Part shown: positions 26,306-52,589 of the stretch, in pieces
Position numbering within the stretch: position 1 is the first letter of the stretch
Layout: every line of letters begins with the position of its first letter
Origin: an uncultured delta proteobacterium
GTDB lineage: Bacteria; Desulfobacterota; RBG-13-43-22
Length of the DNA: 64,000 bases
Direction of reading: 5' to 3'
Assembly: GCA_963711835.1 (NCBI GenBank)
Contig: CAVQFQ010000017.1
Span: 544,001-608,000, forward strand
Translations under genes and position numbers: made by a program
Notes under the pieces: model-generated
What the model was told of the DNA's origin: nothing
The model's database searches: none
Seen by the model: the letters and a program-made list of their open reading frames with translations, nothing else

Positions 26306-27355
26306 TTAATAAACTTTTTTTATCTCTTCAAACAGTTCGTTGGGTGTTGGGATGGAACCCGGCGGCCGGCCGTAAAAATCCACATGGGAACGCCTGTCCA
26401 CCGACAGCTTCACATCCTCGACCATCTGGCCGGTATTCAACTCGACGACAAAAAAACGGGGGATCTTCAGCGATAATTCCCGCAGAGGTTTTTCCGGATA
26501 GGGATAAAGGGTAATGGGTCGGAAAAGCCCCACCTTCATTCCCTGCTCCCGGGCCATGGCGATCGAGGATTTGATGATCCGGGCTACCGATCCGAAGGAG
26601 ACCACGACCAGCTCGGCATCTTCAAGGCGATACGTTTCATACAGGATTTCCTCCTTCATCTGTTGATACTTCTGAAAAAGCTTCCAGTTATGGTCGGTCA
26701 ATTCTCCTTCGGTCAAATAAAGGCTTTTTAGGAGCTGGGCCTTCCGTTTCCCGGCCCCGGTCAGGGCCCAGGGTTTGGGAAAGGCCTTCGCTTCGTAGGG
26801 CCGCAGGACCACCGGTTCCTTGATCTGTCCCAACAGGGCATCTCCCAGAATCACCACCGGGTTGCGGTATTGATCAGCCAGGTCGAAGGCCTTCATGGCC
26901 AGATCATAATTTTCCTGTGCCGAATAGGGGGCTAAAACCAAAGTCCGGTAGTCTCCATGCCCTCCGCCTCGGGTGGCCTGAAAATAGTCCCCTTGAGAAG
27001 GGGAGATGCCTCCGAGTCCGGGGCCGCTGCGGCTCATGTTGACGATAACCCCCGGGATCTCGGAACCGGCCATATAGGATATCCCTTCCTGCTTCAAGGA
27101 AATCCCGGGACTGGAGGAGGAGGTCATGGCTCGGGCCCCGGTTGCGGCGGCTCCCAGGAGCATATTGATGGAAGCGATTTCACTCTCCGCCTGGATAAAG
27201 GTTCCCCCTAAGGTTGGGAGATGTCTGGACATATATTCCGGAATATCGTTTTGGGGGGTAATGGGATAACCGAAATAAAACTTACAGCCGGCGGCTATGG
27301 CCCCCATGGCAATCGCTTCATTGCCTTTAACCAATTCTATCTGGGACTTGGACAT
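26306..27355 (-). CDS. vorB: 2-oxoacid:ferredoxin oxidoreductase alpha subunit (VorB-like)
   Basis: KGNEAIA, YFGYPITPQ, QAESEIASINM, TSSSSPGISLKQEG, GGGHGDY, GQMVEDV. Confidence 0.88.
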   Translation of the reverse strand: MSKSQIELVKGNEAIAMGAIAAGCKFYFGYPITPQNDIPEYMSRHLPTLGGTFIQAESEIASINMLLGAAATGARAMTSSSSPGISLKQEGISYMAGSEIPGVIVNMSRSGPGLGGISPSQGDYFQATRGGGHGDYRTLVLAPYSAQENYDLAMKAFDLADQYRNPVVILGDALLGQIKEPVVLRPYEAKAFPKPWALTGAGKRKAQLLKSLYLTEGELTDHNWKLFQKYQQMKEEILYETYRLEDAELVVVSFGSVARIIKSSIAMAREQGMKVGLFRPITLYPYPEKPLRELSLKIPRFFVVELNTGQMVEDVKLSVDRRSHVDFYGRPPGSIPTPNELFEEIKKVY

Positions 27356-45451: not shown

Positions 45452-46797
45452 ATGATGCCGGCCTTGAATATCATGGTAGTGGATGATGAAGTCAACATCC
45501 GTAAGACCTTATCGGTTTGCCTGGAGACCGAAGGGCACAAGGTTATTGGAGTCAGCAATTTTCAGGATGCCCTGACGGAGAGCTGCACGCCGGTCTTTTG
45601 ATCTGGCCTTTGTCGATCTGCGTCTCGGCACCGAGGACGGCCTGGATCTGATTCCGGCCTTACTGGCTCACATCGCCCTGGCTCAAGATTATCGTCATCA
45701 CGGCCTATGCCTCCATTGATACGGCCGTGGAGGCCATGCGACGTGGCGCCACGGACTATATTCCCAAACCTTTCACCCCTACCCAGGTCAAGCTGACCGT
45801 CCAGAAAATGTTCCATATGCGCACCCTGGAGCAGAAGGTTGCCGCTTTGCAGGAAGACTTGGGACGGTCATATCCCGAGATAGAATTTGCCAGTACCAGC
45901 CCGGTCATGCAACGGGCGGTCAATCTGGCCCGGCAGGCTGCCCCATCCGAGGCCACGATTCTTCTTCGTGGAGAAAGTGGAACCGGCAAGACCGTCCTGG
46001 CCAAGGCCATTCACTCCTGGAGCAAGCGGGCGGCCAAACCCCTCGGCATCATTTCCTGTCCCTCTTTTTCCGCGGAATTGCTGGAAAGCGAACTTTTCGG
46101 GCATGTCAAGGGGGCCTTTACCGGGGCCGTTCGCGACAACCCGGGCCGGGTGGCCGCCTGCGAGGGCGGCACACTTTTTCTCGACGAGATCGGGGATTTG
46201 CCCCTGTCCCTTCAACCTAAATTGCTGCGTTTTATCCAGGAAAGGGAATATGAACGGGTCGGCGACTCTATCACTCGGAAAGCCGACGTTCGTCTGATTA
46301 CAGCCACCAACTTGGGATTTGGAAAAGGCGGTGCAAGGAAGGACGATTTCGAGAAGATCTCTTTTTTCGACTCAATGTAATTCAGATCGAAATCCCCCCC
46401 TTGCGCGAACGTCCGGATGATGTGATTGCACTTGCCGAACAATTACTGATTTTCTATGGCCGGAGCAATCATCAGGCCTTTATTGGTTTTACTCCGGAAG
46501 CCTCCAGGCCCTCAGACAATACCCCTGGCCGGGCAATGTCCGGGAATTAAGCAATGTCATCGAGCGGGCGGCCATTTTTTGCCGAACCGATCGTGTCGGT
46601 ATCGAGTGTCTTCCCTGCAAATCTCTACCCCAATGAATCCCTGCCCAACTATCGGTGATCCGGTCACCCTGGAAAAAATCGAAGAACAACACATCCGAAG
46701 AATTCTGGCCACCACCAGATCACTACAAGAAGCGGCCGACATCCTGGGTATCGATCAGGCTACCCTCTGGCGCCGCCGTAAAAAGTACGGGATCTGA
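45452..46797 (+). pseudogene. Sigma54-dependent NtrC/AlgB-like response regulator with multiple frameshifts
   Basis: MMPALNIMVVDDEVNIR from ATG 45452; FDLAFVDLRLG; ITAYASIDTAVEAM; GESGTGKT; GAFTGA; WPGNVREL-equivalent split across frames; HTH AADILGIDQATLWRRRKKYGI. Confidence 0.85.
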
Positions 46798-46801
46798 AGG
46801 T

Positions 46802-47581
46802 CTATTCAAGAATGAAACAATTTAATATATTAGCCGCTTTTTTTATAGCCCGTTTTCCCTTCAAGAGAAAGACAAAGGCCGCTACCATCGAATGAAGAGA
46901 GACCAAGGTGTAGCCCGTTGGAAGGTCGAATTGATAGGAAATGACGACCCCCAGAAGATTAATCAAGGTCCCATAGATCCAGGCAAATAAGAGATTGAAA
47001 CGGCTGACCATCATCAAAGAGACCAGGGCCGGGGCGACCAGAAGAGAAAAAACCACCAAGACGCCGGCCAGCTTTACCGAACTGGTTACCGTTACGGCAA
47101 AAAGCAAAAAAAAGCTAATGTCCTTTAGGCGATTTTTAAAAAATTTTCCGGTCAGGTAGAGGGCGATCCCTATCAAAAAGTAAATTCCGGTAGTGGTGTA
47201 AATGTCTTTCAGAGAGACAAAAAGCAAATCGCTGGCCAGCAGCCGTTGAAAATCTTCCGTTCCATGAGGAGATTTGGAGAGGATCAGAAACACGGTGGCA
47301 ATTCCAAAGGCATAGATCAGACCGATGAAGGCCTCGGAAAGCCTTTCGACCTTGGAAGCTACGGCTATGACAAAGGCCCCTAAAAAGGCAAAGAGCAGGG
47401 AGATCGGGTAATGAAATTCTCCTTCAAAAAAGAACAAAGAAACGGCGGCCCCCAGGGCGGCCATTTGCCCAATGGCCAGATCGGTAAAGATAATACCTCT
47501 CTTCAGAATCTCCATACCGAAGAAGGAATGGATGCCCACTAAAACGACTGAAAGAAGAAAAGCGGTCAGCAGTATATCCAT
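46802..47581 (-). CDS. Zn/Mn ABC-3 family permease (ZnuB-like)
   Basis: RGIIFTDLAIGQMAALG, EAFIGLIYA, VTSSVKLAGVLVVFSLLVAPA. Confidence 0.88.
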   Translation of the reverse strand: MDILLTAFLLSVVLVGIHSFFGMEILKRGIIFTDLAIGQMAALGAAVSLFFFEGEFHYPISLLFAFLGAFVIAVASKVERLSEAFIGLIYAFGIATVFLILSKSPHGTEDFQRLLASDLLFVSLKDIYTTTGIYFLIGIALYLTGKFFKNRLKDISFFLLFAVTVTSSVKLAGVLVVFSLLVAPALVSLMMVSRFNLLFAWIYGTLINLLGVVISYQFDLPTGYTLVSLHSMVAAFVFLLKGKRAIKKAANILNCFILE

Positions 47582-48477
47582 TATTGAGACAACCTCCGGA
47601 CTATTTCTTCAAAAAGGGAAAATAAATCCTTGGCCTCCGGGACCGCACCTATATCATGGGGAAGAAGGATATATTTAGCGCCCGTCTTTTCAGCCACGAA
47701 CTGGGCGCTCCTCTTTTCATGATAGACATCTTGCAGGATAAAATCCACTTTCTGCGATTTGGCCGTTTCTATCAGTTCCTCTATATGTCTTGCCGTCGGA
47801 GGAATCCCCGGTTTCGGCTCGATCGTCCCGGCCAGGGACAAATGGTAGGCTGAAAGGAAATAGTTAAAGAGCTGTGATATTGAATAACCTTTTTCCCTTT
47901 AACGACGGAAAGCTTATGATCCCATTCCCGTATTTTTCTCATCCCAATGTTTCAGGAACTCGACAATCTTATTTTCATAATGCCGGCAGTTGATTAGCGT
48001 CCAGACCGCACAGCTTATCTTTTATGGCCCTGGCCAGAATCGGGAATGTTATGGGGGTCAAGAGCGAAGTGGGGATTTCCTTCGGGATGAATGTCTCCCT
48101 CGGATCGGGAAACACTGGTGGGCACTTCGATGAGATTGACGTGTTGCGAGAGGTCTAAAAATCCCTTTGAGGTTTGGATCCTGGGATTATTGGCCTGCTG
48201 TAATGAGGATCGGTATAAATCCGATTTCCAGACCGGCCCCATTAATAATGACCAGGTCCGCTCCTCGAAGTTTGGCAATAAAAGAAGGTTTGGGAACAAT
48301 AAAATGGGGATCTTCCGTCCCTTTGCCCAGGACAAAGACTTCCACCTTATCCCCTCCTATCTTCTGGGTGAGGTCTCCTATGTAAGGATAGGTGACCACC
48401 ACTTTTATTTGGCCATAGGAGAAGGTGGTAAACGATAAACTCAATATCAAGCCAAGGAAAATTATAAATTTTTTCAT
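47581..48477 (-). pseudogene. Zn/Mn ABC substrate-binding protein (ZnuA/TroA family), frameshifted
   Basis: Fragments in different frames: KIGGDKVEV...EDPHFIVPKPS...NGAGLEIG; GDIHPEGNPHF; IEPKPGIPPTARH. Confidence 0.85.
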
Positions 48478-48489
48478 CTTCGTCCTCCA

Positions 48490-49987
48490 TTAATAAGCAT
48501 GGGCGCCGTGGGCCCCGATTGCCATTTGAAATTGTAGAAAAACCCCGGTAACCGGCTCCCGATTGGTTCCGTTAAAGAGCGAGTTGTCCTGGTTGAGTTG
48601 AAGTCTCAGGAGTGAGAATTCCGAGGGTTTAAATTCCAGCATGGCCGAAATTCTATCCAGGCCGCCGGGTAGACCTTGTTTTATGCCATCATTATAAACA
48701 TCATTTTGATTCAAAAGATCATACCTGACGCCGGTCCGCCACCTCTGTGCAAATCGATAGACCAATTGGGAATAAAAGCCCGATTGCTTTAGTTCCTTTC
48801 CAAAGATATTCAAGGATTGATTGGGATCGTCCGGGGCCGGGTCTGTCCCGACGTTTAAATTCATATACCGGTACATAAACTCGCTTTGCCAGGATACATA
48901 GCGGTAGGAATCGATAAAATATTTGGCCGTTAAGTCCAGGCCGTAAATTCTTGTATCTCCATAGGCCATCTGGGATTGGAATCATTAGTAAGGTTCTGCC
49001 TGGTCTGCCCTTGGGCATAGGACAATCCCCCCAAAAGCGAAAGACTGCCGATATCAAAAGAAGACTTGATATAGGACACCAAGAGGTTGGGTTGCTGGGC
49101 TCCGTCTTTGGCAAAGACGAGGCCATTTTTTTCCAAGCGGACGCATTGGTCCCGAAGCTGCCCGTCATTTTCTCCTTGCAGGATCTTCGGCCCCTAATAA
49201 AAGGTAAAAGGGGGTGGGGGCCAGCCAATTGATTTGAACCCCCTTTTCAACCAGCCCGTCCTCCCCAAAGAAGGCCCGATTCACCAGGGGGGCATCGGCA
49301 AAGTCCCAAACATGCTCGTGTTGAACATTCAATCTCCCGAAAGAAGACCTGAATTTACCTCCCTTGACCTGAAAACCCCAAGGCAAGGACTTTGGTTCTA
49401 AAATAGGCCTCTTCAAGTTCAACACCGCTCTCGGTAAAAGGGAATGGTGGCGGACAAATCAAAATAGGGATCAACCGGGGAATAAAGGGACAGTTCTCCA
49501 AAGTTGAGATTAAAGCCCCTATTCGGATTCGATATTCCGGAAGGGATCAATTCCGGGACCCTGAGATTTCTTAAGGTTTCATCATTTATATTTCGGCCCA
49601 CATAAGAGCCATCCACAATAAAAGAAATATCCGGAACGAATTTGCTCTGTGAAAAAGAATAGACTTCCAGAGGTTTGGGCATTTCAGAAAATTTTTTATC
49701 AATCGGGCTGGTCGGGTAAGCCATCCCCAATTCTTTGGCTTTTTATTGGTCCAACCATTTCCTTGGGGGTCGCCTGGGTCACTACGGGCTTGACCTCCTG
49801 GGCAACCTGAGTCCCTTTGGATTGCCCCTTCAAGTCATCGATCTCCTGTTGCTGCTTTTCAATGGTCTTTTGCTGATTTTGTAATAATCTCTTCCAAGGC
49901 CTTAAGCCTTGCTTCTATATCCGAGCCAAAGGATTGGTGTTGCCAGAACAAAGGGGAAAAAAGAACAAGGATCAGTATCCTTTTCAT
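48490..49987 (-). pseudogene. Outer-membrane metal-uptake porin/receptor, frameshifted
   Basis: GGAGG plus ATG 49987 and a signal peptide. Fragments FVPDISFIVDG, SPVDPYF, KGGKFRSSFGRLNVQHEHVWDFAD, PSEFSLLRLQ and C-terminal IGAHGAHAY. Confidence 0.8.
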
Positions 49988-50081
49988 GAACACCTCCATA
50001 AAGAATATCCTCGGAAAAGGAATAGACCTATCTTGTCAAAGGTCAACGATTCGAGAAGATCTTAGGAATGGACAAGAGGCG

Positions 50082-50424
50082 TTAAATGGAAGGAGGTGCT
50101 CGGGGGACTGTGAGATCTATAAAAAGATTTGGAGATTGGAATTGTCGTTTCAGGATTATTAAAATCAATACCCTGAAAAAGGGATTGAATAAGGCCGGCG
50201 TTATTATTAACTAAAAAAGGCAGGTTAACGGATAGACAAATCGGACAATCGGAATGGGAAGAGGAATCGTTATGGTGATGGTAGGGTAGGGTCAGGATGG
50301 AAATTAAGAAGAGAAGGGCCAGACCACAAGACCCGTTCCTGACCAATCGGATTGTTTTTGGAGAAAAGGTAATCACAGGTAACCTGCTTAATATAATCAA
50401 ATCTACTGATTTTTTATATAGCAT
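50082..50424 (-). CDS. DUF2946/CruR-like leader protein (TM, His-rich, CxxC, C-terminal RAPP after one frameshift)
   Basis: LALLFLISILTLPYHHHNDSSSHSDCPIC in the called frame. The +1 frame ends NLFIDLTVPRAPPSI-stop (RAPP codons 50102-50091, TAA 50084-50082). Confidence 0.7.
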
Positions 50425-50593
50425 CCTTGGTAGACTATCCGCAAGGGAGAAAATCGAGGATTAGATTCGCCTGTTCCAGGTGCCCTCGATTGGCCCAGAT
50501 CCTCTTTTATAATACATCTATTTACGCCGTCCCGGACCTTTTTATGGTCCATCACTTTTATCAGGAATAATTTTTCCAGCCGGGTCCCTGTCC

Positions 50594-50742: not shown

Positions 50743-52589
50743 ATGTTAGGACTGCGCCAAAAAATATCACTCGGCTTCGGCGGGCTGCTGATCATTATTT
50801 TATTGATCGGAATCCAGAGTATCCTTCAACTCAGCCGACTGGGAGATTCCATCGATGTCATCCTGCGCGAAAATTACCGGAGTGTCATCGCCTGTCAGGA
50901 GATGAAAGAAGCCCTGGAACGTATTGACAGCGGAATCCTTTTTTCGCTTCAGGGATATACCCAAAAAGGCCATGAACAGATTCGTATCAATGAACAGGCC
51001 TTTGAAAAGGCCCTTCAGGTGGAATTGAACAATATCACCCTTCCCGGCGAAGGCGAAAAGGCCGCCTTGCTGCAAAAGAATTACAATCAATACAAAAGCG
51101 CCCTTAAGGATGTAGTGGGTAGTCCCCTTTCAATTAACCATCGTCGTCAGACTTATTTTAACGAACTCCTTCCCTTGTTCGACCGCATTAAAGGGACCGC
51201 CAACGAAATCCTTCAAATGAACCAGCAAAATATGCACGAAGCCAATGATCGGGCCCGCCGGAGTGCTGCTACGGCTAAGAGGGAGATGGTTTTTCTTTTA
51301 TTGGCGGGAATGATCATCGCCGTAGGATTTTTATTTTTTTTCGGGAAATGGGTCTTGCGGCCTATTAACCGCCTGATCCAATCTACCGATGAAATCCGAA
51401 AAGGAAACCTGGATCTGGTCGTCCAAAGCTCCTCCCGGGACGAGATCGGTCTTCTTTCCCAAGCCTTTAATGACATGGCCACAAGCCTCAGGGAGTTTCG
51501 CCGCTCGGATCAGGCCCATCTCATTCGGATCCAGCAGGCCACCCAACAGGCCTTCAACAGCCTGCCGGAGGCGATTGCGGTTATCGATCTGGAAGGCAAG
51601 GTGGAGGTGGCTACCGAAACAGCCAGGAATTCCTTTGGACTCCAGCCGAACATTTCCCTTAGCGCCTTGCCCTTTGGATGGATGGCGGAATTATACCAGG
51701 AGGCCATCAAGCAGGGCCGTACGGTGAATCTGAAAAACAGCCAAGGGGTCTTTCAGCATTTCATCCGGGGGGAAGAACGCTATTTTCATCCGGAGGCGGT
51801 TCCTATCCTCGACCGGGAGAGACAACCCGCCGGGGTGGTGATGGTCCTTCAGGATGTCACCCAGCTCCGGCAGCAGGATGAGATAAAAAGAGGGATGATA
51901 TCCACCGTATCCCATCAACTGAAAACACCTCTGACCTCCATACGTATGGCCATCCACCTCCTGTTGGAAGAAAAAGTCGGACACCTTACCGAAAAACAGG
52001 TCGAACTGCTTTTGGCGGCCCGGGAAGACAGCGATCGGCTTCACAATATCCTTAATAACCTGCTGGATATCAGCCGTATCGAATCAGGCAAGACCAAGAT
52101 GGAATTACAGCCTCGTTTCCCCGAATTCCATTGCAAATGGAAGCCCTGGAACCCTTTTGGAGGGCGGCCCACGACCAGGGGGTGACCCTGAATGTCGAGG
52201 TGCCGGGCGATTTGCCCGAGGTTTGGGCCGATCCGACCAGAATCTATTATGTCTTTGGCAATCTTCTTTCCAATGCCCTTAAATATACCCCAGCGGGCGG
52301 TAAGGTCACCGTATCCGCCAGGGCGGAAAAAAATGAGGTCCGTTTTTCCATCTCCGACACGGGAAGGGGGATTCCCGGTCAGTATCTCCCCAGGATCTTC
52401 GAACAATTCTTTCGGGTCCCGGACCAGGAAAAGGAATCGGGGGCCGGCCTCGGACTGGCCATTGTTAAAGAGATTATCGAAGCCCACGGTGGGACCGTCG
52501 GCGTAGAAAGTCAGGAAGGGAAAGGGAGCACTTTTATCTTTACCCTGAAAACAGTGGATCATCTATCGAAGCAGGAGGATCATTCATGA
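50743..52589 (+). pseudogene. KinB-like sensor histidine kinase (four-helix sensor-HAMP-PAS-HisKA-HATPase), frameshift near 52110-52140
   Basis: ILRENYRSV, DEIGLL..AFNDM, TVSHQLKTPLTS; NLLSNALKYT and GAGLGLAIVKEI are in the next frame. Confidence 0.88.

Follow-up and report, generated by a model that had tools for sequence, protein, structure and literature searches.

A RAPP-ending leader upstream of porin and ZnuA/ZnuB-type genes in an uncultured delta proteobacterium: a candidate metal-sensing arrest peptide

The leader, porin and transporter genes

The window analysed here is a stretch of 64,000 nt from an uncultured delta proteobacterium (GCA_963711835.1, contig CAVQFQ010000017.1, positions 544,001-608,000 of the forward strand) and the feature under study lies on its minus strand (Table 1). 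Compared loci are labelled L, fetched proteins P and genomes G, with G000 being the window's own genome. The original prediction placed an open reading frame with a transmembrane segment, an HHH..H cluster and a CPIC motif directly before genes for a metal-uptake porin, a binding protein and a permease, and this arrangement is borne out. The binding protein and permease match PF01297 and PF00950, respectively, and a structure model of the porin from L016 (mean pLDDT 64) forms a beta-barrel that best matches porins such as VhChiP, OmpT and OprP. PF01297 was found in all 17 of the binding-protein candidates scanned from related loci; of 401 genomes examined in the phylum, 55 carry the porin. The gene upstream of the leader is divergent and the leader is the first gene of the operon, separated from the porin gene by a spacer in which we found neither an intrinsic terminator nor an Rfam riboswitch, the Rfam search returning only two sub-threshold eukaryotic matches.

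In the window ORF list no ATPase gene follows the permease gene. A second, complete ZnuA-ATPase-permease operon with neither leader nor Zur box is present in the same genome (G000:C5:264600-267250) and, judging from its gene content, could supply the missing ATPase. The leader-porin operon is flanked by genes for a sigma-54-type response regulator (45727-46797, plus strand) and a histidine kinase (50743-52589, plus strand), the latter standing before kdpA/kdpB; the end of a similar regulator gene lies directly upstream of the distant leader-porin operon in both L025 and L026.

Table 1. Features of the leader-porin operon, in positions of the window
Feature	Position	Strand	Basis or remark
Promoter-like element, TTGCGG-18 nt-TATATA	50415..50444	-	conserved in four-way alignment; TTGCGA-17 nt-TATAAA in L016/L017
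Leader ORF of about 98 codons with GTG 50376 as probable start, interrupted by a surplus base near 50127	50082..50376	-	alignment
Leader hydrophobic segment, putative signal peptide or signal anchor	50281..50328	-	read from translation; lies ahead of the His cluster, also in the alignment
HHH-x5-H-x2-CPIC, putative metal site	50236..50280	-	same or nearly same in close relatives
CPIC within putative metal site	50247-50236	-	HHH begins at 50280
RAPP codons CGA GCA CCT CCT, putative arrest motif	50091..50102	-	in frame in close relatives
RAPPSI-stop	50102-50082	-	other frame than HHH/CPIC in window assembly
Anti-SD arm GAGCACCTCC within RAPP codons	50101-50092	-	complementarity and predicted fold
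Intergenic region, 94 nt, first half with more C than G	49988..50081	-	leader stop to porin
Porin SD and spacer GGAGGTGTTC	49997-49988	-	immediately 5' of ATG 49987-49985
Outer-membrane porin gene	48490..49987	-	intact relatives encode 497 aa; about 10 indels in window
ZnuA-family metal-binding protein gene, frameshifted in window	47581..48477	-	PF01297
ABC-3 (ZnuB-like) permease gene, intact	46802..47581	-	PF00950

The start of the leader, originally put at 50424, has to be moved: the ATG at that position overlaps the promoter-like element and a stop codon follows it in L016 and L017. The start codon of the relatives aligns about 40-50 nt further downstream, where the window has the GTG at 50376, and the real start probably lies near this codon. 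The promoter-like element itself is supported by its conservation, since it is absent from the list returned by a consensus promoter scan. No evident Shine-Dalgarno (SD) sequence precedes the leader's own start codon in L016 and L017, which suggests that ribosome loading on the leader may be sparse.

As originally proposed, one frameshift joins the HHH/CPIC frame to RAPPSI-stop, and comparison with L015 and L016 traces it to a single surplus base near 50127. Close relatives encode an intact leader of ~100 residues with a RAPPSI end, and over its N-terminal 83 residues the window leader shares 70% identity with the intact L016 leader. Ten close loci (L015-L019 and L088-L092) have RAPP in frame, and RAPP-[SA]-I is the C-terminus in all nine close proteins (P0001, P0002 and P0004-P0010; 11 of 36 matches were fetched), which removes the concern that RAPP might never be in frame. 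Two contigs of related organisms from public runs are a net one base shorter over 50110-50127. In addition to the leader, unrelated neighbours in the window ORF list (biotin ligase, response regulator and kinase) also look frameshifted, and alignment of 3.5 kb of the operon with L015 at 90% identity opens 27 gaps, mostly single extra bases and one of them at 50127; both the gap pattern and the broken neighbours fit an error-rich assembly. Because the relatives are intact with RAPP in frame, the related contigs are one base shorter and the neighbours are broken too, an assembly error near 50127 is very likely. The porin and binding-protein genes are broken as well, as they would be had the operon truly decayed in the window organism; given single-base gaps at this level of identity, intact motifs and damage that extends to unrelated genes, we consider decay highly improbable. 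One related genome, G018 (76% complete), carries three copies of the leader-porin-binding protein-permease operon (L015, L016 and L017).

A family of DUF2946-like leaders

Using a single porin protein as query, we examined 82 loci and dropped two without a porin, 12 duplicates, one without a start candidate and four without a usable start or upstream DNA, which left 63 porin loci, the window included. A RAPP-like leader precedes the porin in 56 of the 63, ending in RAPP in 45 cases, RSPP in five, RGPP in four, and RPPP and HGPP in one each. A CxxC motif is found in 42 of the 54 unbroken leaders and in 41 of these 42 the distance from its first Cys to the Arg of the RAPP-like motif is 47-50, with 48 in the window.

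Among the closest known systems is CruR (Bp2923, DUF2946/PF11162), which precedes bfrG in Bordetella pertussis and in which copper is described as relieving a stall with Rho-dependent output; CruR has C90 and R139, and its CxxC-RAPP spacing is reported as conserved and important (PMC9426467). Its arrest has been located to RAPP, the two prolines occupying the P and A sites (PMC12992588). Like CruR, the window leader is the first gene of a metal-uptake operon and has an N-terminal hydrophobic segment, CxxC, a C-terminal RAPP, a long spacer and an excess of C over G. The CxxC-to-Arg distance of 48 in the window compares with 49 in CruR, and 44 residues intervene between CxxC and RAPP in close relatives versus 45 in CruR. 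Unlike CruR, the window leader carries a His cluster before CxxC and is followed by a porin and ZnuA/ZnuB, where the CruR locus has a TonB receptor and PepSY; the ion is probably zinc here and copper for CruR, and the Pfam score falls under the cut-off.

Likeness to DUF2946 leaders had been part of the original prediction, and it holds for anatomy and spacing but not for the profile score. DUF2946 is the best family for the L016, L017 and L018 leaders with 17.2-18.6 bits (E 0.003-0.009), below the PF11162 gathering cut-off of 23.7 bits; the distant L021 leader clears this cut-off with 24.1 bits, one of four close proteins matches at E<0.01, and three other scanned leaders gave no DUF2946 match. 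DUF2946 clusters are also among the leader's atlas neighbours at 0.94. We file the leader as DUF2946-like and not as a DUF2946 member. A PF11162 search of the window genome found no match, as expected since its leader gene is broken, and a custom leader profile found no second leader in that genome.

With the same profile, further leaders turn up immediately ahead of a ZnuA operon (L132-L134), and also ahead of TonB receptors, a CzcB/CzcA pump and a multicopper oxidase. In L132 and L133, where the leader stands directly before a ZnuA-type gene, RAPP is encoded with CCT CCT and a strong SD follows about 50 nt downstream. The leaders of L131, L137, L141, L142 and L144 precede the CzcB/CzcA pump (L131), an OprC-like receptor, another TonB receptor and the multicopper oxidase, with KAPP and KSPP replacing RAPP as the ending in L141 and L144. 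Among the porin loci, L067-L071, L073, L074 and L076 keep the His cluster and the RAPP-like end and have no CxxC, and this subgroup perhaps senses another metal; in L068 a weak chelatase match comes from the second gene downstream of the porin. Two further loci depart from the pattern: L146 (G010:C43, about 26724-26816) is a truncated leader of the close type that ends soon past the His cluster and has no porin behind it, and in L066, which has no leader, the porin frame is open upstream into sequence that by eye looks FeoA-type.

RAPP codons and the porin Shine-Dalgarno sequence

Within the RAPP codons of the window leader, GAGCACCTCC pairs with GGAGGTGTTC, the porin SD and spacer, over 10 contiguous positions with one G-U, confirming the complementarity first noticed by inspection. 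The resulting helix is the outer helix of the minimum-energy fold with a probability of 0.98-1.0 in six sizes of folding window; the stability of the whole fold is modest (z -1.9; matched by 9 of 200 shuffles). When 1172 other SD regions from the window genome were compared, just 19 could pair 10 contiguous nt with the RAPP arm. In a set of 11 close loci, whose spacers range over 70-209 nt, the RAPP-codon/SD helix is the sole consensus structure, but it is absent in L022, L023, L025, L026 and others, a sizeable part of the family, and it does not covary: 1 of 12 pairs changes on both sides, which 376 of 500 shuffles reach, and permutations of the flanks (p 0.05-0.33) were no better than control positions and gave no covariation beyond the SD core. 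A comparison of cognate with non-cognate duplex energies (p 0.015) was set aside as evidence for pairing because control positions behaved similarly.

We masked the footprint of a modelled stalled ribosome on the RAPP codons and calculated the cost of opening the porin initiation site, which in the window falls from 13.4 to 6.8 kcal/mol. Among control genes (220 of 367) the median opening cost is 5.4 kcal/mol and four reach 13.4; none of the 220 shows a relief of 6.6 kcal/mol, in a control that is fairer than upstream-mask controls, which are confounded by distance, but is built on the window geometry only. Relief exceeding 1.4 kcal/mol was seen in 20 of 34 representatives versus 12 of the 220 control genes, and over the 34 representatives SD occlusion is stronger with the native RAPP codons than with random synonymous ones (p 0.0013; L092 left out). 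In silico, the modelled footprint relieves SD occlusion far more than in control genes, in line with the original proposal that a stalled ribosome frees the porin ribosome-binding site. The window SD remains mostly paired under the modelled ribosome, in weaker alternative helices (unpaired 0.05-0.18), and relief is small in the close relatives L015, L018 and L089 (1.6, 1.2 and 0.0 kcal/mol, respectively). Anti-SD-like sequences are reported to repress at long range in vivo and to be depleted from genes (preprint PMC12697547).

The codon of the first proline (Pro1) of the motif is biased. CCT, which gives CCTCC, stands there in 35 of 56 loci, where 11.8 would be expected; counted by clusters, the figure is 21 of 34. 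Measured against backgrounds of 23% (other leader prolines) and of 30% and 33% (first of Pro-Pro in the window genome, overall and near gene ends, respectively), the excess over clusters has p values of 2e-6 to 6e-4, which overstate its significance because the loci are kin. Third-position T stands at 63% for Pro1, 39% for Pro2 and 22-27% in earlier leader codons, with third-position C at 11% for Pro1. The bias is the same for short and long spacers (30 of 47 and 5 of 9), and CCT could also be favoured for decoding or for avoidance of frameshifting. As regards a chance resemblance of CCU-CCU to an anti-SD, the RAPP codons are biased to the anti-SD spelling, but covariation does not accompany the bias.

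A candidate switch, competing readings and known systems

We envisage the following sequence of events. The conserved RAPP-ending leader heads the porin/ZnuA/ZnuB-type operon, and when metal (probably zinc) is scarce a ribosome would stall on the RAPP codons of its own leader and cover the anti-SD that these codons spell, making porin initiation possible. Binding of metal to the His cluster/CxxC, 48 residues upstream of RAPP, would release the ribosome. Once bare, the RAPP codons would form the helix with the porin SD, 94 nt downstream, and so prevent initiation, and Rho would then probably also gain access to the C-rich mRNA left untranslated. The gene anatomy, its conservation, the CCT bias and the predicted helix come from the sequences themselves. 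By analogy with CruR, the arrest would be intrinsic, the ribosome holding the Pro codons in its P and A sites, and metal at the His/CxxC site would end it; the polarity of the switch and the ion are inferred. We give this mechanism an even chance of being right.

The ion sensed may well be zinc, and we favour it somewhat because of the binding protein, the name of the porin, a Zur-like gene and a Zur box. The best NCBIfam match of the binding protein is the zinc protein AztC, under its cut-off, and a His/His/His/Asp ligand pattern can be read from the L016 copy; one member of the porin family is annotated as zinc-regulated; a gene with Zur as its best match stands on the same strand about 2.6 kb downstream of the leaderless L065; and the leaderless L041 has a Desulfovibrio-type Zur box with one mismatch. 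The neighbours in the operon (porin, PF01297 and PF00950) include none of copper homeostasis. The zinc signs weigh against a switch of the same design responding to Mn, Co, Ni or Cu, which would be compatible with either output mechanism and which we regard as possible though unlikely. In favour of another ion, Mn or Fe can be the cargo of PF01297 proteins as well (MntC and EfaA models), the permease gene of L015 is followed by a fragment of a cbiM-like cobalt/nickel transporter gene (L015:2969-3924), similar leaders stand ahead of an OprC-like receptor, of a multicopper oxidase and of a CzcB/CzcA pump, every family member described as tested senses copper, and the window genome has its second ZnuACB-like operon without a leader.

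Zur was rejected as regulator of the window operon: there is no Desulfovibrio-type box upstream, and none of the three Fur-family genes in the window genome (89% complete; two scanned and one judged by eye) is Zur-like. A looser Caulobacter-type Zur pattern tells nothing, matching five loci with a leader and one without. Replacement of Zur by the leader in control of the importer is a hint only, because Zur signs appear in two of seven leaderless loci, with a clear Zur box in only one of the seven.

The strongest competitor on the side of output is the mechanism published for CruR, in which the stalled ribosome would shield a C-rich Rho entry site, metal-triggered release would lead to Rho termination in the 94-nt spacer and the helix would be incidental or auxiliary. 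An excess of C over G marks the final 60 nt in 53 of 54 leaders and the stretch past the stop codon in 48 of 54, versus 35% of ends and 43% of post-stop stretches for ordinary genes, and G at synonymous positions drops to 12% over the final ten leader codons before RAPP, the kind of signature that CruR uses for Rho; spacing and importer context are shared with CruR, and the lack of covariation in the RAPP/SD helix points the same way. Rho itself is present in 19 of 20 family genomes. We found no rho match in the window genome, which probably reflects incompleteness and weighs little, the genome being 89% complete; as an argument against a Rho mechanism it was dropped, since Rho is so widely present in the family. 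A plasmid search for proteobacterial comparators (Rho-type DUF2946 loci) gave no match. What a Rho site leaves unexplained is the preference for T over C at Pro1, and also the SD occlusion, far above that of control genes and relieved by the modelled ribosome; CruR, acting through Rho, is described as spelling its own RAPP with frequent B. pertussis codons, whereas the RAPP codons here spell an anti-SD. We consider a purely Rho-based output unlikely.

The other described relative, CutF of the CutF-cutO system of Rhodobacter capsulatus, has the opposite polarity: a copper-induced, EF-P-dependent stall turns a detoxifying oxidase on (10.1101/2022.11.11.516240 = PMC9973294; 10.1101/2025.02.05.636593). 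As in those accounts of CutF, a leader with a Cys motif, in the window putatively exported, precedes the regulated gene and a stalled ribosome unmasks the following gene's SD by opening a helix, for the window in silico only. Were metal binding to trigger the stall here too, the operon would be switched on by metal, as might suit the one related leader (L131) that precedes an efflux pump. The importer context argues for the opposite polarity, the RAPP arrest of CruR is described as intrinsic, and CutF has CxxxC and PPP where the porin leader has CxxC and RAPP; metal-induced stalling is accordingly improbable in our estimation. In the porin leader, moreover, the helix arm consists of the RAPP codons, 94 nt from the SD and before an importer, whereas the CutF stem-loop is described as lying between the genes. 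CruR (Rho, copper relieving the stall) and CutF (SD-masking stem, copper inducing the stall) bracket the porin leader, for which we continue to favour release by metal and closure of the RAPP/SD helix.

The SD-unmasking logic is also that of SecM and the RAPP-type Sec/YidC monitoring peptides, in which a RAPP-like arrest is reported to free a downstream SD from a helix; unlike the porin leader, these are described as sensing secretion force, without a metal site, and as controlling sec or yidC (PMC10987492). The original prediction named no description in this lineage, but the arrangement is partly on record. The source data (4B) of PMC12992588 list RAPP uORFs before this porin annotation, with at least nine rows carrying the zinc-regulated name and, for 'carbohydrate porin', 54 RAPP versus 5 AAPP among the matches listed. 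These rows have the same arrangement of a small His/CxxC-RAPP ORF before a porin-sized gene and are given as entries with no mechanism; the tie between the porin family here and the zinc-regulated name is through one member only. The words 'zinc', 'porin' and 'Shine' do not occur in the main text of PMC12992588, and three supplements of PMC9426467 gave no match for zinc, porin or Desulf. In a literature search that covered few subscription journals, neither a zinc-sensing arrest peptide nor an anti-SD role of RAPP codons was the subject of any paper found. A list of 5,334 CutF-like proteins accompanies 10.1101/2022.11.11.516240 and may include loci like the porin leader.

Published papers or source data already contain the class of peptide, the logic of SD unmasking and the arrangement of the genes, so that pending tests the advance is an incremental one. 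The metal-sensing arrest peptides that we found tested in print respond to copper, and a zinc version, if true, would widen the class. If the anti-SD role is true, synonymous codon choice within an arrest motif would itself be the regulatory element. Several delta-proteobacteria are reported to have znuABC without Zur or Zur boxes, and another mechanism has been suggested (PMC545781); the leader, if it acts as proposed with zinc, would offer an answer. Our broadest reading, which we hold tentatively and with less confidence than the mechanism itself, is that zinc-sensing arrest peptides of this kind may be widespread, with the same twelve nucleotides serving as RAPP stall and anti-SD, and may stand in for Zur in control of the importer in many anaerobes.
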